DNA from: an uncultured Methylomirabilota bacterium
Lineage (GTDB): Bacteria; Methylomirabilota; Methylomirabilia; CAVQYV01
Assembly: GCA_963718295.1 (NCBI GenBank)
Contig: CAVQYV010000003.1
Span: forward strand, 16,482-80,481
DNA: 64,000 bases
Reading direction: 5' to 3'
Both the position numbers and the translations under genes were made by a program. Every line of letters begins with the position of its first letter. Position 1 is the first letter of the stretch. Below are positions 6,306 to 37,750 of this stretch, piece after piece. Below the pieces are notes generated by a model. The model had not been told where the DNA came from. It did no database searches and saw only the letters and a list, made by a program, of their open reading frames with translations.

Positions 6306-6332
6306 CGCCTATGTTCGACAGCCCTTACGATT

Positions 6333-10840: not shown

Positions 10841-10853
10841 TTTGCAGGGGAGT

Positions 10854-13206: not shown

Positions 13207-14334
13207 ATGAGGCCTAAGCACTTGATTTTGGCAATGCTTCTATTGGTGGTCGGGTTCCATTCTACTGCGTGGGCGAGAGATCCAATTATGTATGGTCCTC
13301 TTGGGAAGTTGAAAAGAATAAGGACGGAGGCTGTACGTCCAGCGGATGAGATAGTCATCTATAGCCAAACGATCAGCGATGCCCCTGGGATGGGGGAATG
13401 GCGATCATACAACCAGGACTTCGGATGGACCCATACCTTTGATGTTGCCTATTCTTACGTCCAGTGGAGTGACCTGAATATCACGGCCTTGGATGTAGAT
13501 TATGATGAGGGTCAGAGGGACCTCATATATGCGGACGGGCAATATCTTGGCCCGCTGCAGGGTGGAGATAGCGGATGGTGGCCAACAAGTTTCGCCGTGC
13601 CCATATCCACCCTCCTTCCCGACGGAAAGCTGGCTATTTGGGTGGACGTCGACTCTACCCATGATTACGAAAAATGGATGGTCACGATAGGATCATCGAC
13701 GCTCCGGGTCGCATACGTTCTGAAGCCTGATCGAGAGGAGGCCTTCCGACGATTGGACGACAAATGGAATACGCTGAGCCAGCGGGAAAAGGCGTCCAAG
13801 GTGAGGAACCAAGCCGTCTTTAACGGTTTGACCGCGAGGTATGCCACAATGACCGCCAGGCAAGTGGAGTCTGCGATCGAGAAAGTGAAAGCCTCAAATC
13901 CAGCCTATGCCAAGATAGAAACGAGATTGGTCAAAGCCCTCATTTATGTCGAATCCGCCAACAATTTCCTGGCCCTGAGCGACCAAGGGGCTTTAGGACT
14001 TGGACAGAAGTTGACAGGAGCAGTAAACGCAAAAAAGGCTTTTGCCAACCTTCAGCGAACCCTAGACCTGGCCGCCTATAAATATGGAAGTCTTGCCCTC
14101 GATAGCAGAACATTGCCGGAGCAAAGTATCGATTTGGCACTTGCCTACCTTAACTGGCTTGCCAATCTTCCCATTGTCTCCAATGACATCGACAGGATGC
14201 TGGCCGCCTACAATTGTGGCCCGGGATGCTTGCGGCGACTCCTGCAGAGTGAAGGGTCCGGATGGATGAGAAAGCTCCCCGACGAAACCAAGGACTATAT
14301 CCCGAAAATCAAAGAGAAAGCAGGTACAAAATAG
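13207..14334 (+). CDS. Secreted protein with a C-terminal lytic transglycosylase (SLT) domain
   Basis: Signal peptide MRPKHLILAMLLLVVGFHSTAWA after an AAGGGGGA RBS. The C-terminal region has ALIYVESANNF...GALGLGQ...AYNCGPG SLT motifs. The N-terminal 230 aa are unassigned. The region is lower GC. Confidence 0.7.
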   Translation: MRPKHLILAMLLLVVGFHSTAWARDPIMYGPLGKLKRIRTEAVRPADEIVIYSQTISDAPGMGEWRSYNQDFGWTHTFDVAYSYVQWSDLNITALDVDYDEGQRDLIYADGQYLGPLQGGDSGWWPTSFAVPISTLLPDGKLAIWVDVDSTHDYEKWMVTIGSSTLRVAYVLKPDREEAFRRLDDKWNTLSQREKASKVRNQAVFNGLTARYATMTARQVESAIEKVKASNPAYAKIETRLVKALIYVESANNFLALSDQGALGLGQKLTGAVNAKKAFANLQRTLDLAAYKYGSLALDSRTLPEQSIDLALAYLNWLANLPIVSNDIDRMLAAYNCGPGCLRRLLQSEGSGWMRKLPDETKDYIPKIKEKAGTK

Positions 14335-16654: not shown

Positions 16655-17338
16655 TCATTCGTGCTGGATTTCTTCCCATAGCGCCTTGTTGAAGGGGGCG
16701 TGGCGTGAGGGGCAGTTCTCTTTGTGGCAGACCTCACAACTGCGAAAATCTGTCTCCGTGGGAAACAAGATGCCCGACGTCGTCTTGTTGGGGATCATGA
16801 GGGATGACTCGGTTAGTCGGATGCCAAGTTTCTCCTCAACCCCGTCGAGTAGGCAGAACAGGCTTTTCTGCTGTTCAATAGGCCAAACCGAAGCGTCACC
16901 CGACCCGGGGCGCATGGTTGCCGTCTTGCCAAGACGGAACGTCTGGTGCAAGTGCTCGCTCAGGAACTTGTTGGCCACGCCAAGCAGACGAGTCTTGATC
17001 AAATCCCACCAAAACTCCTGCAGCATATCACCCTTGCACGGGAAGCCATGATCCAGTTCATGTCCACAAGTGGCGATAAGCGGAAAAACCCGTTCGACGG
17101 GTTCCAGATTGTGGGCAAGCGTCCGGCTTGTAAACCAGACATCGCCAATCTGGGTCCTGTCGCCGTCTCGCGCCGTAATGAAAGCGGCGGCGTAGGCGGC
17201 CTTCGGGCTGCCGATGCTCTGCGCCAATTCAATCAGCGAGAGCAGGTCCGCTGCGTCGCTTGACCCGACTTCAACATGGGCTTGAGCCATGATCTGGTCA
17301 GCATCCAGGGAAAACGGGATCTTGGTGAGGGTCCTCAT
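16655..17338 (-). CDS. Hypothetical protein (227 aa) with a C-terminal Cys cluster; possibly methionine-synthase activation-domain-like (uncertain)
   Basis: Start MRTLTKIP after a GGAG RBS. It ends ...FRSCEVCHKENCPSRH. The family assignment is a weak recollection only. MITE-like copies A and B flank it in direct orientation. Confidence 0.55.
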   Translation of the reverse strand: MRTLTKIPFSLDADQIMAQAHVEVGSSDAADLLSLIELAQSIGSPKAAYAAAFITARDGDRTQIGDVWFTSRTLAHNLEPVERVFPLIATCGHELDHGFPCKGDMLQEFWWDLIKTRLLGVANKFLSEHLHQTFRLGKTATMRPGSGDASVWPIEQQKSLFCLLDGVEEKLGIRLTESSLMIPNKTTSGILFPTETDFRSCEVCHKENCPSRHAPFNKALWEEIQHE

Positions 17339-17355
17339 TACATCTCCTTGGACAC

Positions 17356-17475
17356 AATGCCGAATTGAGGGGCAACCGCAGACGGCGCGTAGGAAGCAGA
17401 CCTCCCGGTCCACGACCCGTCTAAGCGCCGGCTAGGCGGCAGCCCCGTAGTGTAGGGGGTGCCGCTCGAATGGCT
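17356..17475 (+). repeat. MITE-like intergenic repeat, copy B (degenerate right end)
   Basis: aatgccgaattgaggggcaaccgcagacggcgcg ... ggcggcagccccgtagtgtagggggtgccgctcgaa. Box1, box2 and box3 are conserved, with compensatory changes in the internal hairpin relative to copy A. Confidence 0.5.
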
Positions 17476-17634: not shown

Positions 17635-20136
17635 TCAGGGGCTGATGAACCTCCACACATTGCTGCTGTACTTCTCCTGGTCTTGTCCAGTCAGCGTAAA
17701 GATCTTGTCATGGTACCTGCCGGCAAGGGCGGTGAAGAGCTCCTGGGATCCGAAAATGGTATCCCTCCAGATGCCCGATCCATACCACTCGCCATCGGCG
17801 AGGTAGTCATTATCCTTCGCTGCACCATGGAGGCAAAAGACCTTGTTGCCATTATTGATGCCTGCGGCCCTGGCTCGGGGCTTTTTCATGTTGGATCTCG
17901 GGGTCCAGCTATTGGCAGCAATATCGTACTCCTGGGTCGACGCCTGTTCTACCCAACTGGATGAGTATCCCCCCATGACCAGGATCTTGCCGGTGGTGCC
18001 GATGGGCGCCGCAGCGGCAAAGCAGGCGGCCGTAGGCATAAGGGATAGGGAGGTCCACGTGTTGCTGCCAGGGTCATAGACATAGGGTGGATTGTTAGGT
18101 CCTCCGTAGGCCCCGCCGAAGACGTAAAGCTTGCCTCCATAGGAGACCACCCCGGGCCCGTTGAAAACGACTGGCGCATCGGCCCCACTGGTCCACGTCC
18201 GGGTGACGGTGTCGAAGATCTGAAGGGTGGCATAATACTGGCCAATATCACCTTCATAGCCGCCTACCACGTAGATCTTGCTCCCGATTGCTGCGGCTCC
18301 GGCCGCATACACCACTGTGGGCATCATCCACCGGGAGTCCATAACCGAGTAGTTCGAAGCCAGGTTGTATCTTTCCACCAAACCCGTCTGGCCCCAGTTG
18401 GTGAAGCCCCCAAAGATCCAGACATCCGTTCCCACCTGGGCCGAGGTAGCACCGTAGCGGGGCAAGAGGACATGGCCCACCAAGGCGGCAACCTTTCCAT
18501 GGGCAAAGTAGGCGCCCCTGGAAGTGCCGGAGGCGGTGCTAACCTGCAGCCTACCCTCCCCCTGGGGAAGGCCTGAGGGAAGGGTAACTACGATCTTCGT
18601 GTCACTCCAGCTTGTAATAGAGCCGCTTGAGAGCGCCACGGTCTTGAACTTGACGGTGCCGGTGGAGCCAAAATTGATCCCCTCGATCGTAATCGTCTCG
18701 CCCACCCAGGCCTTGTTGGGCATAACGGAGAAGATCGCCGGATCGCCCAGGATGCCACTGGAGAGGGAACGGCTGAGATTGAGACGTCCCTCGGTGAGAT
18801 TTTTGCCTTGGAAAGCCCCCGCTATGCCGTCCTCGGCCCCATTCAGGATGAGAGCCTTGACCTTCCTCCAGCCATATGCAGGCTGCTTGCTCCAGATGAC
18901 GGCCGCAGCCCCGCTCACATGGGCACAGGCCATGGAGGACCCGCTTTTGATGCCGTAGGCGTTGCTGGGAAGCGTGCTGGAGATATCGGTCCCTGGGGCA
19001 TGGAAATCTACCGTGGAAGAACCGTATCCGTCAGAGTGGGGCTGGTCGTTTCGATCCGAGCGGCCGACGCTGATGATATTGGACAGATCGAAGCATGCGG
19101 GGTATACCGGATACAAATCCTGGTCGCAATCATACCTGGAGGCGGAGGCTACCATCAGGACTCCTTTATCCTTTGCGGCGGCGAAGGCGTCTTCGAGGGA
19201 TTGCGGGAAATAGGGGGTCTCCCAGCTGGTGTTCATGACCATCCGGTAGCCCTCACGCTGTTGGATCGCCAGGGCATAGTTGATGCAACCGATCGCCTGT
19301 GAGACGTAGGCAAAGTTCTCATAGGACGAGAACTTCAGGGCCATGATCTTGCCGGTCCAGGCCACTCCTGAAATCCCCTTGCCATTATTGCCCTTGGCAG
19401 CGATGATGCCCGCCAGATGAGTGCCATGCCCATTTTCATCCATGGGATCGACGTCGTTGTAATATCTATCGATTCCATAGATGTCATCCACAAACCCATT
19501 GCCATCATCGTCGATGCCGTTTCCCGCAATCTCGTCCGGGTTTTTCCACATGTTGACTGCCAGATCCTCATGGTTGTAATCCACCCCGGTATCGATCAGC
19601 GCCACCACAACTCCTGCCCCCCCCTTTTGGATATTCCAGGCAGCAGGGGCGTCGATGTCCGCATCGTTGGTTCCCCCGGATTGCCCCGTGTTTTCAAGGC
19701 CCCATTGTTCGTTGAACTTGGGATCGTTGGGGACTGCGTCTATCGTAATCTGGTAGTTGGGCTCCGCATAGTCCACGGTCCCACTTCGATAAAGGGCTTC
19801 GATGTACTTTCCCACCGGGAGTCGGGAAGGAATCTGGACCCGCAGCACTCCGATCCAGGGATAGACTTCCTTCACATGGCCCCCTATTCCGCTCAGGGCG
19901 AGCTGAGCCTCTGCCGACAGGGACCCCATCACCTCCCGGTCTGCCGAGGGACCCAGGCCCGGATGAGTCTTGATCCCTTTGAACTTGACCAGGATCTCCT
20001 CCGGGGCGAACCGGACCTCCGCCGCGGGGGTACCCAGGCCTTTGAGGGGAGCCGCCTCGACCCCTTGTAATCCGATGAGGAAAGAAATCCCTCCGACTAT
20101 CAACGCCCAAATCAATGAGAATATCTTGGCCAGCAT
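17635..20136 (-). CDS. Secreted subtilisin-like serine peptidase (S8) with C-terminal IPT/TIG and Kelch-like repeat domains
   Basis: 833 aa with a signal peptide. The catalytic triad is in VVALIDTGVDYNH, HGTHLAGIIAA and GSSMACAHVSGAAA. The C-terminus has repeated GG..Y.FGG Kelch-like blades. Confidence 0.9.
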   Translation of the reverse strand: MLAKIFSLIWALIVGGISFLIGLQGVEAAPLKGLGTPAAEVRFAPEEILVKFKGIKTHPGLGPSADREVMGSLSAEAQLALSGIGGHVKEVYPWIGVLRVQIPSRLPVGKYIEALYRSGTVDYAEPNYQITIDAVPNDPKFNEQWGLENTGQSGGTNDADIDAPAAWNIQKGGAGVVVALIDTGVDYNHEDLAVNMWKNPDEIAGNGIDDDGNGFVDDIYGIDRYYNDVDPMDENGHGTHLAGIIAAKGNNGKGISGVAWTGKIMALKFSSYENFAYVSQAIGCINYALAIQQREGYRMVMNTSWETPYFPQSLEDAFAAAKDKGVLMVASASRYDCDQDLYPVYPACFDLSNIISVGRSDRNDQPHSDGYGSSTVDFHAPGTDISSTLPSNAYGIKSGSSMACAHVSGAAAVIWSKQPAYGWRKVKALILNGAEDGIAGAFQGKNLTEGRLNLSRSLSSGILGDPAIFSVMPNKAWVGETITIEGINFGSTGTVKFKTVALSSGSITSWSDTKIVVTLPSGLPQGEGRLQVSTASGTSRGAYFAHGKVAALVGHVLLPRYGATSAQVGTDVWIFGGFTNWGQTGLVERYNLASNYSVMDSRWMMPTVVYAAGAAAIGSKIYVVGGYEGDIGQYYATLQIFDTVTRTWTSGADAPVVFNGPGVVSYGGKLYVFGGAYGGPNNPPYVYDPGSNTWTSLSLMPTAACFAAAAPIGTTGKILVMGGYSSSWVEQASTQEYDIAANSWTPRSNMKKPRARAAGINNGNKVFCLHGAAKDNDYLADGEWYGSGIWRDTIFGSQELFTALAGRYHDKIFTLTGQDQEKYSSNVWRFISP

Positions 20137-20254: not shown

Positions 20255-21862
20255 TTAGATGCCTTTTCCAGTTGTCCCGCGGTCCCAGGTATCGGCCGTT
20301 ATGCCTTGTTTGCGCAACTCCGCCTTCTGGGTCCGCTGGGTGGCAGTCTTGGGCAATTGATCCATGATCCGCACATAACGGGGGACCATGAAATAGGCCA
20401 TCCGCTCACGGCAAAAGGCGATCAGCTCCTCGGGAGCGAGGGTCCGCCCCGGCTTGAGCATCAAGCAGATCATGATCTCGTCCTCGCCGAGCTCGGACTT
20501 CACGGCTACCGCCGCGGACTCCAGGACCGCCTCGTGGGAGTTGATCACCTTCTCCACTTCGTAGGAGGAGATGTTTTCTCCCCGGCGCCTCAGGGCGTCC
20601 TTTTTCCGATCGACAAAATAGAAGAATCCGTCTTCGTCAGAGCGCGCATAGTCTCCGGTGTGAAACCAGAGGTTCTGCCATGCCTCGACGGTCTTTTCCG
20701 GCATCTTGTAGTATTCCAGCTTCATGCAATAAGGATTCAGAGGCCGCACCAGGATCTCCCCCACGCTATTGGGTCCAACCTCCAGACCGTTGTCGTCCAC
20801 GAGTTTGACGGCATAGTGTGGAAAGGGCTTGCCGCAGCTACCCGGCCTTCTTTCCCGGAAATTGCTCAGCAAGGGCATCCCGATCTCCACCATGCCATAC
20901 CCCTCTATCAGGGTGAGGCCAAAACGTTTCTCGAATGCCTCAAAGAGGTCCTTGGGTGCCGCAGCTCCAAACATCTTCTGCAATGGATTGTCCGCGTCAT
21001 CGGCTTTCGGATCCGCCTTGTAGAGGATGGGAACGATGCTGCCGATATAGTTGAACTCCGTGCACCCGTAATGTCTGACATCGTCCCAGAACTTGCTGGC
21101 AGAGAACCGCTCCGCCAGCACCGTACGAGCCCCGCTCATCAGCGCCGGCATGAAGGAGAGCACCTGGGCGTTCCCATGAAAGAGCGGCAGGGCATTGTAG
21201 AGGCAGTCCTGCTCATCATAGGCGACGGATTGCATAACCGACTCCCCCATGAACAGGGCATAATTCTGAGGCATCAGCGCGCCTTTGGAGGGGCCGGTGG
21301 TCCCGGAGGTAAAGAGGATCCCGAAGGGGTCGGACCAGAGCACATCACAGGGCTCATACCGACCATCGTTGTCGATCACTTGCGCCCAGTCCACCGCGGG
21401 CCGGTCCAGCTTCGGCATCCCCTCTCCTGACGGATCGAAAATGACCAGGTTTTTGACCTTGGGGGTTTGATTCAAGATGGGCTCGACCTGCCCCAGGTAT
21501 TGTCTGTCCATTACCAGCAAGCTCGTGTCGGAGAAATCCAGGAAGTAGATGAGGAGGTCTCCCTTGTGGGCGGTATTGATGGGGACCTCGACGGCCCCGA
21601 GCTTCGACAAGCCAAACCACAAGAAGAGGAACTCCGGGCAGTTATTCATCATGATTGCGACTTTGTCGCCCTTCTTGACCCCGAGCCTCTGCAAGCCACA
21701 GGCAACCCGGTTCACGGCCTGCTCGAAGTCCTGGTACCCAAACGTCTCATCCTTGAAGTATAGAAAAGTGCGGTTGCCATGTTTGGCGACTTGCTGTTCG
21801 AGGATCTTATGGATCACCCGCTCGCGGGTTGGATCATCAGGCATTGCAGACCTCCTTTCCAT
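20255..21862 (-). CDS. AMP-dependent synthetase/ligase (acyl-CoA synthetase family)
   Basis: 535 aa with the AMP-binding motif FTSGTTGPSKG and the adenylate-forming enzyme core pattern. It is the last gene of the carboxylase operon. Confidence 0.9.
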   Translation of the reverse strand: MERRSAMPDDPTRERVIHKILEQQVAKHGNRTFLYFKDETFGYQDFEQAVNRVACGLQRLGVKKGDKVAIMMNNCPEFLFLWFGLSKLGAVEVPINTAHKGDLLIYFLDFSDTSLLVMDRQYLGQVEPILNQTPKVKNLVIFDPSGEGMPKLDRPAVDWAQVIDNDGRYEPCDVLWSDPFGILFTSGTTGPSKGALMPQNYALFMGESVMQSVAYDEQDCLYNALPLFHGNAQVLSFMPALMSGARTVLAERFSASKFWDDVRHYGCTEFNYIGSIVPILYKADPKADDADNPLQKMFGAAAPKDLFEAFEKRFGLTLIEGYGMVEIGMPLLSNFRERRPGSCGKPFPHYAVKLVDDNGLEVGPNSVGEILVRPLNPYCMKLEYYKMPEKTVEAWQNLWFHTGDYARSDEDGFFYFVDRKKDALRRRGENISSYEVEKVINSHEAVLESAAVAVKSELGEDEIMICLMLKPGRTLAPEELIAFCRERMAYFMVPRYVRIMDQLPKTATQRTQKAELRKQGITADTWDRGTTGKGI

Positions 21863-21918
21863 AGCCGTCTCATGCCATCAGGTGCCCATTATGAAGGGTC
21901 GTGCTGGGGCTGTATCAC

Positions 21919-23094
21919 TCACCTTAGGTCTTGAAGATATGTACGGCAACGGCTCCCGACTCCAAGCCGGCAACATAGCCCCCCACCACATGGGTCAAGG
22001 CGACTTTGGCTCCCGCCACCTGACGCTGACCGGCCAGGCCCCTCAATTGCCAGAGCGTTTCCACGATCTGCGCCACTCCCGTAGCAGACAGGGGGTGACC
22101 TTTGCTCAACAAACCGCCACTCGGATTGACCGGAATTCTCCCACCGCAGCACGGTGGCACCCGATTCGACCAGCTTTCCCCCCTCCCCTTTCTCGCACAG
22201 ACCCAGGTCTTCATAATGCATCAGCTCACAGATGGTAAAGGGGTCATGAAGCTCAATGCAATCCAGATCCTGGGGTCCGCAGCCCGCCATTTCATAGGCC
22301 TGGCCTGCCGCCCCGTGGCTCATATCGGAAAAGGTCGCGTCCTTCCAGCGATGCAGATAGTCCCCCGATCTCAACACGGAAGCCGCGACGATCAAGGGTT
22401 TGGTCGTATACCTGTTCGCTATCTGGCTCGCGCACAAAACCACCGCTGCCGCACCATCGGTATTCGGGCAGCATTGCAGCAGGGTCAAAGGCTCGCAGAT
22501 CATTCTGGAATTCAGGATCTCCTCGGCAGTCAGTTCTTTCCGGTACTGAGAGTATGGGTTCAGGGCCCCGTGGCGATGATTCTTGACCGATACCTCGGCC
22601 GCCTGCTTCAGCGTCGTCCCGTATTCATGCATGTGCCTCTTCATCATCATGGCAAAGAATATGGGCATTGCAAGGCCCAACTGCCCATCCAGATCATCCG
22701 GAGGGGGCTCGATCAGCTTGCCCGCGATGGGACTGGTGGTCATCGACTCCACCCCCAGGGCAATCGCGACATCACATAGGCCAGTGGCGATTCGGAGCCA
22801 GCTTTCCCGGAAGGCCGTCGCTCCACCGGCACAGGCGTTCTCCACGTTCACAATCTCTATGCCGGTGATCCCCACCTCTTGGAGCACCCGCTGACCCATG
22901 CAGTATCCGCCGAAGACGGTGGCGCAGGATGCGAATTCCACATCCCTGGGTCGGATTCCGGCGTCCTCGATGGCCGCGAACACGGCCTCTCTCCCCAGGT
23001 CTTCGCACGATCGGTGAGGGAGTTTGCCGAAAACGGTGCTTCCACCCCCAATGACTGCCACGTCTCTCATGGGATCCCAAGCCATCTCTTTCAT
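21919..23094 (-). CDS. SCP-x-type thiolase-domain protein with an apparent frameshift near 22130
   Basis: The N-terminal part (MRDVAVIGGGSTVFGKLP...ENACAGGATAF...) is in the frame of ORF 21919..23094. The conserved C-terminus GGRIPVNPSGGLLSKGHPLSATG...ALTHVVGG lies in ORF 21924..22214 in a different frame. Confidence 0.8.
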   Translation of the reverse strand: MKEMAWDPMRDVAVIGGGSTVFGKLPHRSCEDLGREAVFAAIEDAGIRPRDVEFASCATVFGGYCMGQRVLQEVGITGIEIVNVENACAGGATAFRESWLRIATGLCDVAIALGVESMTTSPIAGKLIEPPPDDLDGQLGLAMPIFFAMMMKRHMHEYGTTLKQAAEVSVKNHRHGALNPYSQYRKELTAEEILNSRMICEPLTLLQCCPNTDGAAAVVLCASQIANRYTTKPLIVAASVLRSGDYLHRWKDATFSDMSHGAAGQAYEMAGCGPQDLDCIELHDPFTICELMHYEDLGLCEKGEGGKLVESGATVLRWENSGQSEWRFVEQRSPPVCYGSGADRGNALAIEGPGRSASGGGSQSRLDPCGGGLCCRLGVGSRCRTYLQDLR

Positions 23095-23130
23095 TCAATA
23101 CTACGAGCAATACACGTACTATCCGGACGT

Positions 23131-23538
23131 TCAGCTAAGGGGCCGGTATCGATAACCCACCACCCTCTTGTTTCCCTCCTGCCAGAGCTCATCGATCACC
23201 AGCTCCATCTCCATTCCAATCTGAAGCTCTTGCCCTTCGGTCTTTTTGAGGGGAGAAAAGATCCTGATGCCCTCCATCAGATCGATCCAGCCAACGATGT
23301 AAGGTGGCAAAAAGTGAGTCGATGGCATATGGGAGGTAGTAAAAGAATAGAGTTTACCTCTGTTGCCAAGCTTGATGGCCTCCATCATGCGGCTGGAGCA
23401 ATGAAAGCAGAATGGTCGGGGAGGGAAGAAGACCTGTCCGCAATCTTCACATCGGTTCCCCATCAAATAAGCCTGATTGGCCTCCTCCACGAATAGGCCT
23501 TCCCTGATCGGGATGTCTTCCTTCGGATTTCCTTCCAT
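23131..23538 (-). CDS. DUF35 Zn-ribbon/OB-fold protein (thiolase partner subunit)
   Basis: 135 aa with CEDCGQVFFPPRPFCFHCSS, a rubredoxin-like Zn ribbon, followed by an OB fold. This is the typical neighbour of SCP-x thiolases. Confidence 0.8.
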   Translation of the reverse strand: MEGNPKEDIPIREGLFVEEANQAYLMGNRCEDCGQVFFPPRPFCFHCSSRMMEAIKLGNRGKLYSFTTSHMPSTHFLPPYIVGWIDLMEGIRIFSPLKKTEGQELQIGMEMELVIDELWQEGNKRVVGYRYRPLS

Positions 23539-23588
23539 TTGCCTCCTGAAACCTCGTCAGCGACCCGCCTGAGAAAAGCCTTGGTGGC

Positions 23589-25667
23589 TTACTCGTTCTC
23601 TCCCGGCCAGGGCCCATAGTAGGTGAACGATTTATAATGCGTGATCGGCCACTCTCCGTAAAACTGCAGCGCCTCTGGACTGGGTTTTTGCTTCAGCCAC
23701 TCCTCTTCGAATTCCGCATACTTCTTCCCTCGCTTCTTCCGGTCCGCCCTCTCCTGTTCGCGCAATGCCTTGGTTTTTTCCTCGTCCGCTACCAGCATTT
23801 CCCGATCGTAGGCTACTCGGTAAATATCTCTGGCTGCCCGATGGGAAATGATCCCGCTCTCCACATCCTTCATCACCAGCTGGGGATCCCTCTCGATCGG
23901 GTCCCCATAGCCACCTCCGCCCCCGTGGCCTCCCACGACGATATCCCATCCCATGGTGGGCATGGGAGGTGAGGGATATATCCCGGGTTGATAGGCTCCC
24001 TCGATGGCCTTCTCCTCGAAAGTCATTCGGTTTGAGCTGGGCACCCTGGGGTCGGATTTGGCCATGAGTTCCTTCAGGTTCGTGTTCGAAATGCGGGTGA
24101 AGGGGAGGGCGGGAATGCTATAGCCTCCGTAGAGCCCTTGCGTCACCGGGACTTTGGACGCATAGCCCCAGGAACCCAGGAACATCATGGGCACGTCATG
24201 CACCGCTATCGCCCACTCCATACCCGCTCCACCCCTGCACTTGCCGTTGCCGGGGCTATCCCGATGAAAGCCTCGATACAGATAAAGCAACGGAAGCTCG
24301 GCCTCCAGGTTTTCAACCTCCCCCGGCTCAGAGGTCATGGGCGCAAAATAGGCCCCTGCTACATCGACCCCATCCTTATCGCCTCGTGCTCCAAACCCGC
24401 AGGCATTGAGCTCGGCGCCCGCGTCGGCGAAGGGAGCTCCGTACTGATTCAGTCCGCCGTATATGATGGTAGAAAAGGTTCGGGCGCCGGTGCATTCGGC
24501 AATCTCGGGGTTGGTAGAGAATGTTGCCTTCTGGAGAAGCTGCTGTACGGTTTGGGCGGTCGTTTCCATGGAATTGGGAGAACCGGCTTTCGGGGATTCA
24601 CGCCCCGCATTGACGATACTGCCCACCGGAAACTTGAATCGGATCGGCTCCAGCACCCCGGCATTATGGGGCAAATCATGGAACAGATGCCCCAACCAAT
24701 AGACCATGTTGATGCCAATCGCCCCCAAGGAATGGCAGTTGGCCACCCGATCCACCACTTCCGGAGAAGTGCCGTCGAAATTGAAATACAGATAATCCTC
24801 TTTCTTCTCCAGGGTGATCGCCACCTTCAGCAGGCGCGACACGGGTCCTACATGATCCAGGAATTGAATGTGCCGGAATCTTCCGTCGTTCCATTGCCCG
24901 ATTCGCTTCCGGGCTCCTTCTCCGGTGACCTGAATCATATACCGGAGGACCCCCTTCAAATGCTCCGGTGAGGATTTCTCCAGGACGGAATGGAGCCTTC
25001 TCTCCACGACTCGCAGGGCGGCCATCCGAGCCTTGATGTCCAGAGTCATGGCCCGGGGGTCCCGGGTCATGTGGTTGAGTACATTGAGGACATCCTGCTT
25101 CAGCAGGTAGTTTTCAGCGATTTTTACCGGCGCGACCTGTAAGCCCTCGTCATAGATGCTTCGGGAAGTGCTGGGCATGCCACCCGGCTCGCAGGCACCG
25201 CATTCGCCGCTATGAACCAGGGCCCCGAGCCAGCAGACCAACTTGTCTTGGTAAAAAACAGGGGTAAATATGCCCATATCGGGGGCATGCACCCCCAGGT
25301 AAAACGGGTCGTTGCAGAAGAATGCGTCACCCGGTTTCACGCCGACGCTGGGCTCATCCAGCCAATGTCTCACGATGTACTTCACCCCGGTTGAGCCCAG
25401 GACTGCATGAAAATACAAGCCGGTTGCGCACACTGCGTTATCGCCCGAGGTTGTGTATATGGCCAGAGCCGTGTCTCCCCATCGACAGCCGGTGGTGGCC
25501 CCCAGCTTGATCAGCGTCTCGTTCCCCTCACTGGCTACGGTAAATAGCTTGTTGACGAATATCCCCGTCAAGGTGGGGTCGAGGGTCTTCATCGACTCCA
25601 ATTCTTCTTTCGTTGGAGGCTCCGGATGAAACCTCGTCCTGATCTCGTAGTCAATTCCTCCTGCCAT
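23589..25667 (-). CDS. Hydantoinase B/oxoprolinase (HyuB; acetone/acetophenone carboxylase beta-like) family subunit
   Basis: 692 aa with the HyuB family pattern throughout. It begins 14 nt downstream of the HyuA stop. Confidence 0.9.
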   Translation of the reverse strand: MAGGIDYEIRTRFHPEPPTKEELESMKTLDPTLTGIFVNKLFTVASEGNETLIKLGATTGCRWGDTALAIYTTSGDNAVCATGLYFHAVLGSTGVKYIVRHWLDEPSVGVKPGDAFFCNDPFYLGVHAPDMGIFTPVFYQDKLVCWLGALVHSGECGACEPGGMPSTSRSIYDEGLQVAPVKIAENYLLKQDVLNVLNHMTRDPRAMTLDIKARMAALRVVERRLHSVLEKSSPEHLKGVLRYMIQVTGEGARKRIGQWNDGRFRHIQFLDHVGPVSRLLKVAITLEKKEDYLYFNFDGTSPEVVDRVANCHSLGAIGINMVYWLGHLFHDLPHNAGVLEPIRFKFPVGSIVNAGRESPKAGSPNSMETTAQTVQQLLQKATFSTNPEIAECTGARTFSTIIYGGLNQYGAPFADAGAELNACGFGARGDKDGVDVAGAYFAPMTSEPGEVENLEAELPLLYLYRGFHRDSPGNGKCRGGAGMEWAIAVHDVPMMFLGSWGYASKVPVTQGLYGGYSIPALPFTRISNTNLKELMAKSDPRVPSSNRMTFEEKAIEGAYQPGIYPSPPMPTMGWDIVVGGHGGGGGYGDPIERDPQLVMKDVESGIISHRAARDIYRVAYDREMLVADEEKTKALREQERADRKKRGKKYAEFEEEWLKQKPSPEALQFYGEWPITHYKSFTYYGPWPGENE

Positions 25668-25683
25668 GGCTCGCCTCCTTTCC

Positions 25684-27819
25684 TCACTTTTTGTGAGTCA
25701 ATATCCCATTCCCGTAAGAGTCCATTTTGAATGTCCATTCTGGCTCTATGACGACTGTCGTCGCCTCGGCCTCGATGACGGAGGGTCCCTGAATCAAATT
25801 GCCCGGCTTCAGGTTTTCCCAGGCGTAAATGTTGGTTTTGGAAAAGCCACTGAGAGCCTCCCAGTAGCAATCTCGTTCCCCCTTCATGGCTTTCTGGTCC
25901 GGGGCTTCACCCGCCATCTCCTCACGCCTCACGACAAAGTGCGGCAGCTCCAACTCCACAAACAACCGGAAGGCTTCCAGCTCGATCCCTGCCTCGGGAA
26001 AGGAAGCCTCTGCCCCGTACATGTGTTTGAACTCTTCGGTGAAATGATCGCAGATCTTCACCACATCCTCTTTCCGCTCCACGAAGAGCACCGGAGATTC
26101 GATGTGTGTATACCGCCACTGCATGCCATATCGCATCTCCAGCTCCAGCCGGAAGCGGGCCTGATCCTCGGAAAAGCCTTCCAGTCTGATCTCCCGCAAT
26201 GCCAATTCCTTCAGATCGCGCACGATGGAGTTGAATTTTTCGAAATCGCTGAAGTAAGCGGAGGTGGCGTAATCGAAGAGACGCATGTGATAGGATCTCT
26301 CGTACTTGTGTACGACGTTCAGGCTGGAGGCCCCGAATGCGCCGAAGACCGGAGCAACCGGAGGTATGTAACAGGTTTTCATATCAGCGGCGGCGGCCAC
26401 ACCGCAGCAATGCGTCGGCCCGGCGCCGCCGCAGGCGAAGATCACGAACTCCGTCGGCTCATAGCCCTTGTAAGCCACCTCCTTGAAGATTTCCTGTCCC
26501 ATCCTGGCGTCCACCACCTTCTTGATCATCAGGGCGGCCTTCACTTCGTCCCAACCTGCCTGCTCCCCTATCTTCTTGATCGCCTTCGCGGCTTTTTCCT
26601 TGCTCAAGGCCATCTTGCCGCCGAGGTAATAGTCCGGGTTGATGTAACCCAACACCACATCGGCATCCGTTACGGTTGGCTCCTCTCCTCCCATTTCATA
26701 GCATACAGGACCGGGTATGGCACCCGCGCTTTTGGGCCCCACCTCCAACCGGTTGCCTAACAGCGGATTGAGCCAGGCGATGGAGCCACCTCCCGCGCCA
26801 ATGGAAGAGGTCTGGATGGCCGTGGCCTGGGTTCGCCAGCGGTCGATGGCGGGGTAAAGGTCATAGAAGCGGAGGGCACCCTCCGCGATGACTCCGATAT
26901 CGAAGCTGGTTCCCCCCACATCGGTGTAAACGATGTTGGGCAAATTGAATTGCCTGCCCACGGAGGATGCGCCGCATAGGCCCGCCACCGGGCTGGAATT
27001 GTGGGTGCTGACGGCTATGGTCCGGGAGGCTTTGGTGCATCCACCCAAGTTGTCAACCAGAAGGATGGGTCTTTGGTAGCCATTGTCGATTAAGGCGCTG
27101 CTCAAATAGGAGAGCTGATCCACAAACCCGAGGTGGATGTAAGCATTGACGATGGAGGTCATGGCCCTCACATATTCCCCCCCTTTGGGGGAGATTTCCG
27201 AGGATAGAATGACGGGCATATTCCCCAGATAGATCTCGGGGAACTCCTCCTCGATGATGGCCTTGATCTGCCTCTCATGGTCCGGATTCATGAACGACCA
27301 CAGGAGACAAACCACGAATCCCCGAACCCCGTTATCCACGAGGTACCTGACCTTTTCCAGGACATCCTCTTTCACCAGGGGCATGATGACGTTGCCGCGG
27401 TAATCGATGCGTTCCCGAATTCCTACCACCAGCTTTCGGGGAATGAGCGGAGCCGGCTTCTCGATCCGGGTGATGTTCTGGACATCCGCAGGAGGCAGCC
27501 CATCGGCCCACTGACGTCCCCTCCCGATGAAGATCGTATCTTCGAACCCGCGAGTGGTGAGGAGGCCCAGCTTGGGCCCGCTGCGCTGGATCAGCGTGTT
27601 CGTCCCTATGGTAGTACTGTATTTGATTACATCCGTCTTGCCGAGGAACTCCTCCAGAGCTTCGCCGGATTTCTGAGCGATCTCCTCCAGTCCTTTCATG
27701 AACCCGACGCGAAGGTCATAGGCGGTCGTTGGTACTTTGTTGGTTTGGTATTCGCTGTCTTTGCTCACGAAGAAATCAATAAACGTTCCGCCCACATCCA
27801 CATTCACCATATATCCCAT
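25684..27819 (-). CDS. Hydantoinase A/oxoprolinase (HyuA-like) family subunit, paralog 1
   Basis: 711 aa. MGYMVNVDVGGTFIDFF is an ASKHA ATPase N-terminus typical of HyuA/AcxB. The antisense ORF 25666..26760 is a shadow. Confidence 0.9.
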   Translation of the reverse strand: MGYMVNVDVGGTFIDFFVSKDSEYQTNKVPTTAYDLRVGFMKGLEEIAQKSGEALEEFLGKTDVIKYSTTIGTNTLIQRSGPKLGLLTTRGFEDTIFIGRGRQWADGLPPADVQNITRIEKPAPLIPRKLVVGIRERIDYRGNVIMPLVKEDVLEKVRYLVDNGVRGFVVCLLWSFMNPDHERQIKAIIEEEFPEIYLGNMPVILSSEISPKGGEYVRAMTSIVNAYIHLGFVDQLSYLSSALIDNGYQRPILLVDNLGGCTKASRTIAVSTHNSSPVAGLCGASSVGRQFNLPNIVYTDVGGTSFDIGVIAEGALRFYDLYPAIDRWRTQATAIQTSSIGAGGGSIAWLNPLLGNRLEVGPKSAGAIPGPVCYEMGGEEPTVTDADVVLGYINPDYYLGGKMALSKEKAAKAIKKIGEQAGWDEVKAALMIKKVVDARMGQEIFKEVAYKGYEPTEFVIFACGGAGPTHCCGVAAAADMKTCYIPPVAPVFGAFGASSLNVVHKYERSYHMRLFDYATSAYFSDFEKFNSIVRDLKELALREIRLEGFSEDQARFRLELEMRYGMQWRYTHIESPVLFVERKEDVVKICDHFTEEFKHMYGAEASFPEAGIELEAFRLFVELELPHFVVRREEMAGEAPDQKAMKGERDCYWEALSGFSKTNIYAWENLKPGNLIQGPSVIEAEATTVVIEPEWTFKMDSYGNGILTHKK

Positions 27820-27911
27820 TTGCTCTCCTCCTTGGACGGTCCAAGCTCATGAACCATAGACCCGATGTCTCTTGCGACCCAAAAGCTCCTTGGCCTTGGG
27901 TGATGGGTACA

Positions 27912-28919
27912 CTACCATGTTGTTCTGACGATTTTTAGGAGATCGTGCACGGTTTCAAAAGGCACATCAGGGCGAACTTCACCATCGGTGGTATAGAAAA
28001 AGCCATTCGGCCCACATCCCCTGAAGAAGGATTCCATCATATCGAATGGCTCCCCCAATCTCTCTTTGCCATCCAGTTCAAAAGGAAGGGGCAGGCCCAA
28101 GGAAACTCGCAGGGAATCCGACAACTCCTTCAGGGGTTTTAGATCAAACCCGCCAAATCGCTTGCCCAAGAGCACTACCCCGCTGGGCTTGAGCACTTCG
28201 CATAGCCTCTTGAGCGTCTCCAGGTGGATATCCCGCACCACCAGCACGGGGTAGGCATTGTAGAACCTTACGATGTTGAACAAGGTTCTGTAGGTGGAGG
28301 CAAATAGGTCCCGATAAGGCTCGATCTCCTCCCAGATCCCTTCTCCGATGATATCCTCCCTGAAGAATACCGAGTCCACCTTCAGCTCTGACAGCGCTCG
28401 TACGAGTTTTGTAATCAGGTTTCCCACCTGCGAGATATGCTCCTGCATCAGGGCGTCTTCGAAGAGAGGACAATGGAGCTTAAGCGTCCCGGCAAGCGCA
28501 CAGGGTCCGCTGACGACTCCCACCATGGCCACCTCTCTGCCCAAGGAGATCATTAGCCTCTTGGTGGTCTCCAGTACGATCGGGATCCTGCCCGAGGCAA
28601 GAAACTGCTCTGGTTTCAGGCTTCGGATGTCGCTGATCTCGCCCACCAGGTTGGGCTCTCCCAAGTCGCCGTTCCATACCACGCTGCACCCACAGGATTC
28701 GGCTTCTATACTCGAGTCATAACAATTGACGATGGCATCCAATTGGAAAAGCTTGTGAGAGGCTTCCAGGGAATGGGCATAATACGCGGGATCGTAGACC
28801 ATCTCTTTGAGCGGGACCTGCGTGACCCTGGCGGCGAGACCATAAAAAAAGGGGACGAAAACCCTTTTGCCGGCGTTCTTCAGCTGCAAGGTATTCCTGA
28901 ATGCGGTCTTGGGGGTCAT
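27912..28919 (-). CDS. URO-D family protein, paralog 3, embedded in the carboxylase operon
   Basis: 335 aa. MTPKTAFRNTLQL...DAIVNCYDSSIEAESCGCSVVWNGDLGEPNLVG is a classic URO-D/MtaA core. Confidence 0.8.
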   Translation of the reverse strand: MTPKTAFRNTLQLKNAGKRVFVPFFYGLAARVTQVPLKEMVYDPAYYAHSLEASHKLFQLDAIVNCYDSSIEAESCGCSVVWNGDLGEPNLVGEISDIRSLKPEQFLASGRIPIVLETTKRLMISLGREVAMVGVVSGPCALAGTLKLHCPLFEDALMQEHISQVGNLITKLVRALSELKVDSVFFREDIIGEGIWEEIEPYRDLFASTYRTLFNIVRFYNAYPVLVVRDIHLETLKRLCEVLKPSGVVLLGKRFGGFDLKPLKELSDSLRVSLGLPLPFELDGKERLGEPFDMMESFFRGCGPNGFFYTTDGEVRPDVPFETVHDLLKIVRTTW

Positions 28920-28964
28920 CTGTTCACTGACCGCGGTCTTGAGGGCGCATTCGGCGTCATATCT

Positions 28965-29306
28965 TCACTTGAGATATTTCTCTTTGAGCTTGTCGATATT
29001 CAGCTCGATGTCACGGGGTATGGGATGGCCTGGAGGCAAGTATTGTACTTCAACTTGAGATCCACATTGAGGACAGTAGAATTCGAGAATCCTCACCAGA
29101 TCGGGATCGGGTGCGTAGCTCACCCGTGCACCTTCGCCGACTTCCATCGGCTCCCCGTACACCTCGGCAGCCGGTCTCTCATGGACCAGACATCCCTTCA
29201 TGTAGGAGTCCCTCGCCGAGTAGAGCTCGGCATCGCATCGATTGCAGCGCCAAACCTCTTTTTCCAGATCAATATCCAGATACTCCGTCACTCTGATTCT
29301 TCTCAT
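28965..29306 (-). CDS. Small Zn-ribbon protein, putative acetone/acetophenone-carboxylase gamma-subunit-like
   Basis: 113 aa with two CxxC pairs (CNRCDAELYS, CPQCGSQ). It is translationally coupled to the upstream HyuA-like gene through an ATGA overlap. The family assignment rests on position and Zn-ribbon character. Confidence 0.5.
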   Translation of the reverse strand: MRRIRVTEYLDIDLEKEVWRCNRCDAELYSARDSYMKGCLVHERPAAEVYGEPMEVGEGARVSYAPDPDLVRILEFYCPQCGSQVEVQYLPPGHPIPRDIELNIDKLKEKYLK

Positions 29307-29308
29307 CG

Positions 29309-31357
29309 TCAGGCCTCCTTGATGACTCCGTTGCTGAATTCATCGATATGAAGAGATCTGTCGCTGGGAATCACGTAGGTCGTGTCTTTCGCCTCGATGA
29401 CGGCCGGACCGACAACCAGATTGCCAGGCAATAATCGATCTCTCTCATAAACGGGTGTGGCGATATGGCCAACCTCCGGGGACCAGAATACGCTCCGTTT
29501 CGTTTTCAGGGCTCTGGTTGGGTCTTGAGATGCCAATGGCCCTTTCGTGAGCTCAAAATGTGGCATGGGGACGACCGCATTCAGGATGATGGTGGAAACG
29601 GTCACTTTTTTGACCTGTGAACCGGCTGTCTTTCTGAACTCGCTGCATATGGCCTGGACATCTCTTTCCGATTGAACGAAAGGATTCTTGACGGTGACGC
29701 GAACTCCCCCCACTTCCTTATCTCCCACCAGATCGAGGTAGAAGAAGGCATCGTCCACGGAAAAGCCCTCTCCCTGAATATCTCTCTTTGCGAATTCCAT
29801 GTTCTCCTTCACCACCTGGTTGAAGGCATCATAATTGGTCAGGTAATTGACGCCATCACACAGGGTGATCGGAACGTGTCTGGGGTACATATGCAATAGG
29901 TCGGTGGTGGAGGATCCAAAAGCGCTGAACACCGAGGAATACGGGCTGATGAGAATCTGACTGAATCCCAGGTTATCGGGGAATCCGCAGCAATGGGTGG
30001 GTCCGGCTCCCCCAAACACGATGAGAGCCATGTGGCTTTGCTCAAATTCCTGCACTCCCTGTCTTTTCAGAAATTCTCGTATTTCGTCCCCTATTTTTTT
30101 CTCCGCTGTGATCCTGATCAGATGGGCCGCTTCATCCACGCCGATCTTCAAGGGCTCCGCTATTCTTGTCCTGATCGCCGAGATGGAACGATCCTTGTTC
30201 AGTTTCACCCTGCCGCCCAGAAAGTAATCAGGATCCAGCAACCCCAAAACCAAATCTGCGTCCGTTACGGTCGGATCCAAGCCCCCCAGGTTAAAGCAGG
30301 CTGGACCGGGCCTCGCCCCCGCGCTTTGAGGACCGATCTGGAGATTCTTCGAACCATCCAGATGGGCTATGGATCCACTGGCCAAGGGTCTCGAAACGGT
30401 GTAAATCATGGGCACGTTTACTGGAAGACCGGATATCTGGGGATTGTAGCTATACGGAAGGATACCATTTCTGATCACGCCGAGATCCAGACTGGTCCCC
30501 CCGTTGTCCACGGTCATCACACTCCCCAGATCGTACAGCTTGCCCATCTTGGCCGCGCCCAGCAATCCCAAAGCCGGTCCCGAGGAGAAGGTGTCGATCG
30601 CTCGGGTCTTGGCGACTCTGGCCACGCCCCCGTGGGAGTGGGCGATCATCAAGGAATGTTTGTACAGGTTCGCTTTCAGGTCGTCTTCCGCCTTATAGAG
30701 ATATCTGACCAGGGAGTCGTGGATGTATCCGTTGATGACGACTGCATTCGTTCGAAAGAAATCGCCGGGCTGATCCGAAACCTCAGAGGCCAGGAAGACC
30801 CGAACGCTGCCCAGATAGAAGTTGGGGTACTGTTCTTTGATGATCTTCTTGATCTGTTTCTCATGGGCTGGATTCAGATGGGAGTTCTTCAGGCTGACCA
30901 CGATGGCCCTGGCACCCATATCGATCAGATATTGCATACTCTCTATGACCTTATCCTTACTCAAGGAACTGGTGACGTCCCCTCGATCGTTGACGCCCTC
31001 CTGCACCTCTGTCACCATGTCGTGGGAAACCAGATCAAATATCGGCTCAGCCTCCTTTTGATCTTTGGCGTAGATCGTATCCTTGAACCCTTTGGTGACG
31101 ATCAGTCCGATTTTTGCCCCGCTTCGGGTGATTAAGGTGTTGACTCCAATCGTGCTCGAATATCTCACTACAGCCGTATTGGATAGTAGCTCCGCAATTG
31201 GGAGGTCCAACTGCTTAGCGGCCTCCTTGATGCAGTCGGCAAAACAAACCGTCAAATCGTGAGGCGTCGACAGTACCTTGACGGTCTTGAGCTCTCCATC
31301 CCGGGTGATAAAACCATCGGTAAAGGTCCCCCCCGTATCTATATCAATCGTGAACAT
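29309..31357 (-). CDS. Hydantoinase A (HyuA-like) family subunit, paralog 2
   Basis: Start MFTIDIDTGGTFTDGF after a GGAGGGGTG RBS (M19 of the listed ORF). About 680 aa of HyuA family pattern. The antisense ORF 29993..31135 is a shadow. Confidence 0.9.
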   Translation of the reverse strand: MFTIDIDTGGTFTDGFITRDGELKTVKVLSTPHDLTVCFADCIKEAAKQLDLPIAELLSNTAVVRYSSTIGVNTLITRSGAKIGLIVTKGFKDTIYAKDQKEAEPIFDLVSHDMVTEVQEGVNDRGDVTSSLSKDKVIESMQYLIDMGARAIVVSLKNSHLNPAHEKQIKKIIKEQYPNFYLGSVRVFLASEVSDQPGDFFRTNAVVINGYIHDSLVRYLYKAEDDLKANLYKHSLMIAHSHGGVARVAKTRAIDTFSSGPALGLLGAAKMGKLYDLGSVMTVDNGGTSLDLGVIRNGILPYSYNPQISGLPVNVPMIYTVSRPLASGSIAHLDGSKNLQIGPQSAGARPGPACFNLGGLDPTVTDADLVLGLLDPDYFLGGRVKLNKDRSISAIRTRIAEPLKIGVDEAAHLIRITAEKKIGDEIREFLKRQGVQEFEQSHMALIVFGGAGPTHCCGFPDNLGFSQILISPYSSVFSAFGSSTTDLLHMYPRHVPITLCDGVNYLTNYDAFNQVVKENMEFAKRDIQGEGFSVDDAFFYLDLVGDKEVGGVRVTVKNPFVQSERDVQAICSEFRKTAGSQVKKVTVSTIILNAVVPMPHFELTKGPLASQDPTRALKTKRSVFWSPEVGHIATPVYERDRLLPGNLVVGPAVIEAKDTTYVIPSDRSLHIDEFSNGVIKEA

Positions 31358-32088
31358 CAGCACCCCTCCTCTCCCTGGGATTGCATTGTATAAAAGCGAA
31401 TCCAGACTCAATTACAGATAACGGCACTTGATAACCCCCAAATATCCATAATTGAGGCTGCGCTGCTGCACTCATGAAGGCAGTTTCACTCGAACCTATT
31501 GCGGATTCCTCGTTTGCCCGTCTCAGAAGCGAAATCATGCGGACCTGGCAGCTGGTTGCACGTCAGCCCCGGAGGAGCACTGGCTGCCCGGCAAGAGGCA
31601 CAACTCCAAAGGCTGACCCGATTCCGATGATGTCCCCTCGCTCCGAGCCTATTTACCTTCCTCAAACTTAATTGTCAATGGCTTTTCTTGCCATCTTATA
31701 AGATCGTTGTCAACACATGATCCAAAGAATCTGCAGGGCCGAAGAGAACGGACCTCCCCGCAGCAAGCTGCGGGGTAGCGCAGGGTGAGGGTTCCACCCC
31801 GACCGATGCAACCATTGGAGGATTTGCCCTGTAGGGATGAAAAGGCCCCTGGCAAGAGAGAAGACTGCCCATCCTACGCTTCCAGGGCAATCACATCATC
31901 AGGCCCCTTACAGGCCCTTTTCAAAATGATCCAAATCCTCTATGATCTGTTTCATCGAAGCCCTCGCAAAAAACCGCGAGCTCGTGCTCGCTGGGCATGA
32001 TCCTGAAACGAAGGAAAGGCACTCCTTTGCGGATTGAGCGCCTCTTCCTTCCCTTCATACCCGATGGATAACGAAAGGAGCACACCGC

Positions 32089-37618: not shown

Positions 37619-37750
37619 GCTATCATGATGTGCGGGAAGGGGAAGCGCGAAGACGAATTCGCTGGAAGGCACGTCCACGGAAGCATCGGTGTCACTTCAA
37701 CCTGAGTATTTGTGAATGCATTGGCATCATACTCATCAAGGAGGAATGAG

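Follow-up and report, generated by a model that had tools for sequence, protein, structure and literature searches.

We analyzed a stretch of 64,000 nucleotides (nt), called the window here, from contig CAVQYV010000003.1 of an uncultured Methylomirabilota bacterium (GenBank assembly GCA_963718295.1). Its minus strand carries eight co-directional genes at 20255-31357, separated by spacers of 2 to 92 nt. Gene identities were assigned by Pfam and NCBIfam profile searches of the window open reading frames (ORFs), and the closest solved structures were found by PDB sequence searches. All eight products matched their own families far above chance. These matches confirmed the minus-strand genes and their coordinates, which had been proposed in an earlier sequence-only reading of this DNA. 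As listed in Table 1, five of the genes encode counterparts of the subunits of acetophenone carboxylase (Apc), and three encode a DUF35 protein, a thiolase and an acyl-coenzyme A (acyl-CoA) ligase.

Table 1. Coordinates and family matches of the operon genes and of the region upstream of them, in the order of transcription.
Feature	Position	Strand	Basis
Conserved upstream leader/promoter region (inferred)	31358-31464	-	Nucleotide homology with locus L029
alpha' subunit, ApcA-type HyuA paralog, 682 amino acids (aa)	29309-31357	-	Pfam Hydant_A_N/Hydantoinase_A/Hydant_A_C
gamma subunit, ApcB-type zinc ribbon, 113 aa	28965-29306	-	Pfam Acetone_carb_G, E 4e-26
epsilon subunit, ApcE counterpart, URO-D/MtaA-fold triosephosphate isomerase (TIM) barrel, 335 aa	27912-28919	-	Pfam URO-D, E 2e-12, N-terminal half only
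alpha subunit, ApcC-type HyuA, 711 aa	25684-27819	-	NCBIfam ApcC, 701 bits
beta subunit, ApcD-type HyuB, 692 aa	23589-25667	-	Pfam Hydantoinase_B, E 9e-87
DUF35 protein, zinc ribbon and oligonucleotide/oligosaccharide-binding (OB) fold, BbsA-like, 135 aa	23131-23538	-	Pfam zf-ChsH2 and OB_ChsH2_C
SCP2-type thiolase, frame disrupted by one extra nt at ~22147; 389 aa when repaired	21924-23094	-	Pfam Thiolase_N/Thiolase_C_1
AMP-forming acyl-CoA ligase, 535 aa	20255-21862	-	Pfam AMP-binding and AMP-binding_C

The eight genes behave as a discrete module, because the nucleotide homology between the window and the closely related locus L029 begins at 31464, ends at 20280 and gives way to unrelated flanks on both sides. 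Within these limits, the nucleotide identity is ~84% over the half from DUF35 to the ligase and 86% over the carboxylase genes. An Rfam scan of the whole window, made for riboswitches or leaders ahead of the operon, gave no match. In promoter and terminator scans, the counts equaled the shuffle expectation and no operon promoter was identified.

The five subunit types are those of Apc from Aromatoleum aromaticum EbN1, for which structures of the core (5L9W) and of epsilon (9FOU) exist and whose ligase is Bal. Because the best solved structure and the best NCBIfam match of every subunit came from Aromatoleum Apc by a wide margin, the operon is predicted to encode an ATP-dependent ketone carboxylase with five subunits, of the acetophenone-carboxylase type, and not an oxoprolinase or an acetone carboxylase. 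The subunit logic proposed by the sequence-only reading was thus correct. For alpha, the ApcC chain 5l9w_B scored 646 bits, compared with 320 bits for acetone carboxylase (Acx) and 298-304 bits for hydantoinase/oxoprolinase, which places the Hyu proteins with the carboxylases rather than with the 5-oxoprolinases. Alpha is 44% identical to ApcC, and its fingerprint RERIDYRG matches the pattern R/KERiDsxG and is conserved across the clade to which the window belongs. For beta, the NCBIfam ApcD model gave 429 bits against 168 bits for CapB, and the ApcD chain 5l9w_A gave 391 bits against 149 bits for Acx. The length of beta fits that of Apc beta (684 aa), not that of hydantoinase beta (~580 aa) or of Acx (776 aa). 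Beta also carries a glycine-rich segment, GGHGGGGGYGDP, which is read from the sequence; the polyproline-II fold itself is putative.

The second HyuA paralog, alpha', lacks the alpha-specific R/KERiDsxG pattern and has QEGVNDRG at that site. It scored 463 bits with NCBIfam ApcC and 423 bits with ApcA, and 436 and 335 bits with the PDB chains 5l9w_B (ApcC) and 5l9w_b (ApcA), followed by the oxoprolinase/caprolactamase-type 6yra at 247 bits. The ASKHA motifs DTGGTFTD, DNGGTS and GARPGP are present in its sequence. Translation starts at the ATG at 31357, which is preceded by the ribosome-binding site GGAGAGGAGG, and the resulting length agrees with the 677-683 aa of the relatives. In a neighbor-joining tree, the alpha' sequences, with those of the near-orthologous Apc loci among them, all fell into one clade with 99% bootstrap support. 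Since the alpha' sequences are monophyletic, the alpha/alpha' duplication is, on the evidence of this tree, older than the split of the window clade from true Apc and hence common to both.

Gamma matched NCBIfam ApcB with 143 bits and the PDB chain 5l9w_C (ApcB) with 124 bits, compared with only 23 bits for acetone carboxylase gamma. It has four Cys (C21, C24, C78 and C81) and lacks the ~50-aa N-terminal extension of Acx gamma, so that its description as gamma-like, through the Acetone_carb_G and ApcB matches, was borne out. The gene had also been described as ATGA-coupled to alpha'. This was not the case, since the junction reads TGAcgATG, with a 2-nt spacer between the alpha' stop codon and the gamma start and no overlap.

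Weidenweber et al. 2017 (PMC5214803) gave annotation criteria for Apc-type five-subunit carboxylases. Among these, the operon shows the alpha fingerprint, whose place is next to the beta interface, an alpha' without it that is encoded first, the beta length (~670-690 aa in Apc-type enzymes), a short four-Cys gamma and an epsilon homolog. Apc-type enzymes carboxylate a ketone with bicarbonate, turn 2 ATP into 2 ADP and depend on epsilon for this reaction. Acx (AcxABC; 5SVB, 5M45) has homologous HyuA-like, HyuB-like and small zinc-ribbon subunits and also carries out ATP-dependent ketone carboxylation. However, it consists of three subunits without alpha' and epsilon, its gamma is ~50 aa longer, its HyuB-like subunit has 776 aa and its gene order is acxABC, none of which fits the window. 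The scores of window alpha, beta and gamma to Acx were below half of those to Apc.

The sequence-only reading had held that a URO-D-family protein was not a described component of such a cluster. In fact, Apc of Aromatoleum aromaticum has five subunits and needs the 34-kDa epsilon subunit (ApcE) to be active (PMC5214803; PMC4729919). The best NCBIfam match of the window protein was ApcE (52 bits, E = 8e-14), above the MtaA/CmuA models, and its best PDB sequence match was 9FOU, "acetophenone carboxylase epsilon subunit" (E = 9e-11 by phmmer, residues 19-228), with MtaA second. An AlphaFold (AF2) model made with 62 homologues had a predicted local distance difference test (pLDDT) score of 92 and a predicted template modeling (pTM) score of 0.92. 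When this model was compared with the PDB by Foldseek, 9FOU was again at the top (E = 5e-15), followed by MtaA 4AY7/8 (1e-14) and uroporphyrinogen decarboxylase (1e-12). The identity of the window protein to Aromatoleum ApcE (9FOU) is ~20%. The ApcE-like protein of the near-orthologous Apc locus L071 itself exceeds the Pfam URO-D threshold (38.7 bits against 23.9), and hhalign aligned the window epsilon family with it at a probability of 97.4. The URO-D-family gene is the counterpart of ApcE, the fifth (epsilon) subunit that was already known, and the claimed novelty therefore falls away. A search of a literature library found no paper there that links ApcE to the URO-D fold or describes 9FOU.

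Apc epsilon comes away from the core during purification and has diverged far more than the other subunits, and its role was called "elusive" (PMC5214803). In agreement with this divergence, epsilon was the least conserved subunit among the relatives of the window operon, with 39-49% identity where alpha had 63-83%, and 26% where alpha had 58%. Epsilon shares the TIM-barrel fold and weak hidden Markov model matches with the MtaA/CmuA methylcobamide:coenzyme M methyltransferases and with uroporphyrinogen decarboxylase (PF01208). Unlike MtaA, the epsilon family lacks conserved Cys/His Zn ligands, and its genes always lie inside Apc-type clusters. Because no invariant Cys or His was found among 62 members of the family, an MtaA-type Zn site is unlikely. 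The invariant charged residues are D68, E72, R111, E117, R121, D182 and E188, and many conserved residues lie at or just past the C-terminal ends of the predicted barrel strands. On account of these two features, epsilon may be catalytic. The invariant D68 sits nine residues ahead of a conserved Gly. It may correspond to the catalytic Asp86 of human UROD, a resemblance that we treat as a lead only.

A profile search of the full library with epsilon returned 865 representatives at E ≤ 1e-3, of which 85 had E ≤ 1e-30. When 125 of the more distant ones were compared with the ApcE model, 118 matched it. Two other URO-D-family ORFs lie in the window ~20 kb from the operon, at 1354-2397 (+, 347 aa) and 5178-6305 (+, 375 aa). 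They were rejected as epsilon paralogs, with BLASTP E > 1 to epsilon, and are perhaps methyltransferases similar to MtaA. At 16655-17413 (-), there is an ORF with weak similarity to Met_synt_B12.

Downstream of beta, the DUF35 protein matched NCBIfam BbsA with 71 bits (cutoff 250) and has four Cys in CEDC...CFHC. The DUF35 and thiolase genes adjoin each other downstream of beta in most related loci. Such a pairing of a DUF35 zinc-ribbon/OB protein with an SCP2-type thiolase is also found in BbsAB (7PXP) and in the archaeal DUF35/acetoacetyl-CoA thiolase (6ESQ). Unlike BbsAB, the window pair scored below the equivalog cutoffs, and its thiolase gene is frameshifted. The operon had been described as uninterrupted, which does not apply to this gene. 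The 315 N-terminal residues of the thiolase are in the frame that starts at 23094, and the Pfam matches end near residue 315. The catalytic C-terminus (GRIPVNPSGGLLSKGHPLSATG..., also ...GGRIPVNPSGGLLSKGHPLSATG...), with the GHP motif, is in a different frame that ends at 21924. Alignment with L029 DNA showed one extra base in the window thiolase at ~22147; L029 and all other relatives are in frame. Programmed frameshifting was rejected, as in close relatives one continuous frame encodes these residues. The insertion is either an assembly error or the mark of a recent pseudogene. The repaired thiolase matched BbsB (7PXP) with 275 bits, SCP2-thiolase with 264 bits and the archaeal acetoacetyl-CoA thiolase (DUF35-associated, 6ESQ) with 222 bits in the PDB, and NCBIfam BbsB with 241 bits against a cutoff of 750. 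In Aromatoleum, the benzoylacetyl-CoA thiolase is unassigned and lies outside the operon (PMC4729919). The DUF35/SCP2 pair, which in the window is part of the operon, is a candidate thiolase type for this pathway step.

The last gene encodes the ligase, whose best NCBIfam match was PRK06155 (568 bits, under its cutoff of 722). Its PDB matches were unspecific and of the generic adenylate-forming kind, the best being oxalate-CoA ligase (180 bits). The ligase gene also closes the cluster in L002, L020, L022, L025, L029, L034, L035, L038 and L044, and the enzyme is presumed to be a beta-keto-acid CoA ligase. CoA activation differs between relatives. The window subclade has the AMP-forming ligase, whereas the Dehalococcoidia subclade has a two-subunit transferase that passes the TIGR02428/TIGR02429 cutoffs for 3-oxoacid CoA-transferase. 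By its sequence, the transferase points independently to a 3-oxoacid product. Since two non-homologous enzymes would activate a 3-oxoacid, the carboxylase product is expected to be a beta-keto acid that is then thiolysed. A duplicated fragment of the ligase C-terminus was also seen in L029 at 18466-18679, ~0.8 kb downstream of the intact ligase, with 91% identity to window 20322-20535.

We compared the operon with two sets of loci. A protein search with epsilon gave 103 clusters of 37-97% identity. Three of these with their contigs, and 23 further loci from a scan of one genome per species, were used, and 28 loci were compared. All of these are from metagenome-assembled genomes (MAGs) of Dehalococcoidia, Desulfobacterales, other "Deltaproteobacteria", Syntrophorhabdales, Dethiobacter and one Herbinix bin. 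The order alpha'-gamma-epsilon-alpha-beta (A-B-E-C-D in Apc lettering) was found in 28/28, as far as the contigs reach. The second set, 55 metagenome loci collected with alpha, is unbiased as to epsilon. Here epsilon lay between gamma and alpha in every locus in which alpha was ≥ 58% identical and the upstream DNA was present. The expected synteny of the URO-D gene with the Hyu genes was therefore strict in both sets down to this identity. Loci with alpha 44-45% identical have the classic order with epsilon after beta, and the order apcABCDE was found in L071, L072, L078 and L083. In a small sister group with alpha 48-50% identical (L066, L068, L069 and L076), the order was alpha'-gamma-alpha-beta and no epsilon was detected. 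Loci with alpha ≤ 37% identical have alpha and beta only. In L068 (4831-9236), the gene after beta encodes an acyl-CoA dehydrogenase that resembles cyclohexanecarboxyl-CoA dehydrogenase, and a thiolase gene comes next.

A third order, alpha'-epsilon-gamma-alpha-beta (A-E-B-C-D), was found at 4614-12205 of the Haloterrigena alkaliphila plasmid NZ_CP084319 (L032). The epsilon gene is thus fluid in its position, as it can follow beta, separate gamma from alpha or separate alpha' from gamma, and the five-subunit design with a URO-D-fold epsilon is widespread in uncultured anaerobes and haloarchaeal plasmids. RefSeq names the Haloterrigena epsilon "uroporphyrinogen decarboxylase family protein" with a Gene Ontology (GO) term for porphyrin biosynthesis, which is probably misleading. 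For annotation, a protein of this name beside HyuA/HyuB/Acetone_carb_G genes should be read as Apc epsilon and not as a heme or methyltransferase enzyme. On Rhodococcus jostii RHA1 plasmid pRHL2 (L033), a 269-aa protein is encoded after beta, in the ApcE position (12630-13439). It was rejected as epsilon for want of detectable similarity; either this fifth protein has diverged very far or it is of a different kind. Two Apc-type clusters stand in tandem on the metagenome contig L039 (2304-9982 and 14056-17884), with alpha 79% and 56% identical to that of the window. In both, the epsilon gene separates gamma from alpha. The tandem suggests that one organism has paralogous carboxylases that differ in specificity.

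In the neighbor-joining tree, the window clade was separated from true Apc with 100% bootstrap support. The A-B-E-C-D clade is a distinct branch of uncultured, mostly anaerobic lineages (Dehalococcoidia, Desulfobacterota, Syntrophorhabdia and Dethiobacter), and its hosts are in this respect unlike that of Aromatoleum Apc. It shares with Aromatoleum Apc the alpha fingerprint, the four-Cys gamma, the subunit lengths and the URO-D/MtaA-like fold of epsilon. It differs in gene order, which is A-B-C-D-E in Aromatoleum. Compared with the near-orthologous Apc locus L071, the identity of the window proteins is 33% for alpha', 35% for beta, 56% for gamma and 22% for epsilon. In summary, the cluster belongs to a divergent, uncharacterized clade of a known enzyme system. 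Its genes are rearranged, its putative pocket is altered, a thiolase module is part of the operon, and one gene is apparently frameshifted. To our knowledge, only one Apc-type carboxylase has been characterized biochemically.

We consider it likely, from the combined analysis, that the eight genes provide a complete route from a ketone to acyl-CoA, with an Apc-type carboxylase at its center that has five subunits and depends on ATP but not on biotin. This carboxylase is of the distinct A-B-E-C-D clade and probably acts on a ketone other than acetophenone. The functions proposed for alpha and alpha' as kinases and for epsilon as the coupling subunit are taken over by homology with Apc (PMC5214803). 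In the proposed route, alpha, docked on beta and gamma, would phosphorylate the enol of a methyl(ene) ketone, and alpha' would phosphorylate bicarbonate to carboxyphosphate. Epsilon would couple both half-reactions, so that CO2 is placed onto the phosphoenol intermediate to give a beta-keto acid. The AMP-forming ligase would convert the beta-keto acid to a beta-ketoacyl-CoA, which the DUF35/SCP2-thiolase pair would cleave to acetyl-CoA and an acyl-CoA. The ligase/thiolase pair does agree with a beta-keto acid that is first activated with CoA and then thiolysed, as the sequence-only reading suggested. The module it had described as a possible new carboxylation/decarboxylation pathway follows the logic of the known acetophenone route, in which a carboxylase is followed by a CoA ligase and by thiolysis.

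Several observations weigh against this interpretation. First, Apc-type activity is a prediction for every member of the A-B-E-C-D clade. Second, all five subunits missed the NCBIfam equivalog cutoffs, with 423/1250 bits for ApcA, 143/250 for ApcB, 701/1500 for ApcC, 429/1500 for ApcD and 52/450 for ApcE. Third, the gene order apcABCD(E), which is also among the annotation criteria for Apc-type enzymes, is replaced by A-B-E-C-D. Fourth, two of the seven residues proposed for the substrate pocket differ in the window (L81T and F281H). Fifth, the ligase is not PaaK-type, unlike the ligase that follows the near-orthologous apcABCDE of L071. Sixth, no regulator, transporter or ketone-forming dehydrogenase was found in the window flanks around the operon. 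Finally, as the thiolase is frameshifted in the window, the pathway may be incomplete in the organism if the insertion is real.

The pocket bears most directly on the substrate. In Apc alpha, the proposed acetophenone pocket consists of L81, F281, N282, P285, I333, Q344 and T345, although this assignment is tentative (PMC5214803). The residues L,F,N,P,I,Q,T are found in Aromatoleum Apc and in the classic-order loci L071 and L072. Window alpha has T,H,N,P,I,Q,T, which keeps 5/7, and the Dehalococcoidia subclade has T,Y,G,P,V,K,I. Throughout the A-B-E-C-D clade, position 81 is T and position 281 is H or Y. Because these changes are clade-wide, the scores fall below the equivalog cutoffs and the clade is separate from true Apc, the sequences favor a ketone other than acetophenone as the substrate.

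It is a serious possibility, though less likely than not, that the clade consists of Apc-architecture carboxylases for a small or more polar ketone, such as acetone, butanone, another aliphatic or alicyclic methyl ketone or a hydroxylated aryl ketone, in anaerobes without Acx. The more polar pocket across the clade (L81T and F281H/Y) agrees with this, as do the 3-oxoacid CoA-transferase of the ScoAB/PcaIJ family in the sister Dehalococcoidia subclade and the resemblance of the thiolase to the archaeal DUF35-associated acetoacetyl-CoA thiolase (222 bits). Moreover, the pockets of the subclades (H,N,I,Q/K,T versus Y,G,V,K,I) vary in parallel with the use of ligase or transferase. However, the evidence on the substrate is indirect, and the Apc pocket assignment on which it draws is itself tentative. 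The neighborhoods were uninformative, since a census of 106 flanking ORFs gave only MarR, Liv-type ATP-binding cassette (ABC) transporters, two-component systems and a few short-chain dehydrogenases/reductases (SDRs), none of them diagnostic.

The proposed pocket and the CoA-activation enzyme vary in parallel between clades, and the A-B-E-C-D clade is a source of candidates for new ketone-carboxylating specificities. A bolder form of this proposal, which we regard as doubtful, is that the clade combines the Apc architecture with a new ketone specificity to give strict anaerobes an ATP-driven entry for ketones, and that epsilon is the actual site of C-C bond formation rather than a mere conformational clamp. 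Its cofactor-less decarboxylase fold would then run toward carboxylation, from phosphoenol-ketone and CO2.

The frameshift allows another explanation, namely that the pathway is decaying in this organism and the thiolase is a genuine pseudogene. The single-base insertion at ~22147 does shift the catalytic C-terminal part and the GHP motif out of frame, and the relatives are all intact. We nevertheless think this unlikely, as none of the other seven genes is disrupted and their conservation is high (~93-95% identity to relatives for alpha and beta), and as similar split genes occur in the related MAG loci L005, L016, L025 and L075. Indels of a single base are also a frequent kind of error in assemblies.

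It seems improbable that the operon encodes a true acetophenone carboxylase, orthologous to Aromatoleum Apc and isofunctional with it, whose product benzoylacetate would be converted to benzoyl-CoA and acetyl-CoA. Apc was the best match for all subunits, five of the seven proposed pocket residues are kept, and the best solved relative of the repaired thiolase is BbsB, which cleaves aryl beta-ketoacyl-CoA. However, a separate clade with L071 and L072 already has the traits of such an enzyme, with 1308 bits to the ApcC model (reached by L071), the exact L,F,N,P,I,Q,T pocket, the ABCDE order and a PaaK-like ligase in place of the PRK06155-like, non-Bal-type ligase of the window. The window clade, in contrast, is the distinct branch described above, with 44% identity, T/H at pocket positions 81/281 and all scores under the equivalog cutoffs. 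Genes for aromatic rings were also not enriched in the neighborhoods in the flanking-ORF census.

It is barely credible that the Hyu genes specify an ATP-dependent hydrolase (hydantoinase, oxoprolinase or lactamase) and that the URO-D-like protein is an independent decarboxylase or methyltransferase of a new pathway. The HyuA/HyuB Pfam domains, homologous alpha and beta subunits and the ASKHA ATP site are common to such hydrolases (HyuAB, CapAB; 6YRA, 7HK5), and epsilon also matches MtaA and URO-D models. However, these hydrolases have two subunits only, alpha and a beta of ~580 aa, whereas the window has gamma, alpha' and epsilon, all best matched by Apc. The caprolactamase/oxoprolinase scores reach ~0.4-0.85 of the Apc values, with the ratio varying from subunit to subunit. 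In addition, invariant Cys/His for an MtaA Zn site are lacking in the epsilon family, and epsilon was never found apart from Apc genes in the loci examined.

A few other genes were noted. Directly downstream of the operon, at 17635-20136 (-), lies a gene for an 833-aa subtilase (Peptidase_S8) with a TIG domain and Kelch repeats, which has no obvious link to the operon. A 1412-aa ORF at 46979-51217 (-) gave no Pfam match at E ≤ 1e-5. For a neighboring phosphofructokinase, the named relatives were no more than 61-65% identical and were spread over Geobacter, heliobacteria, Planctomycetes and Chloroflexi. A multihaem cytochrome c with matches to Cytochrome_C554 and MtrC-like families is encoded at 37712-39109 (+), which is consistent with an anaerobic respiratory host.

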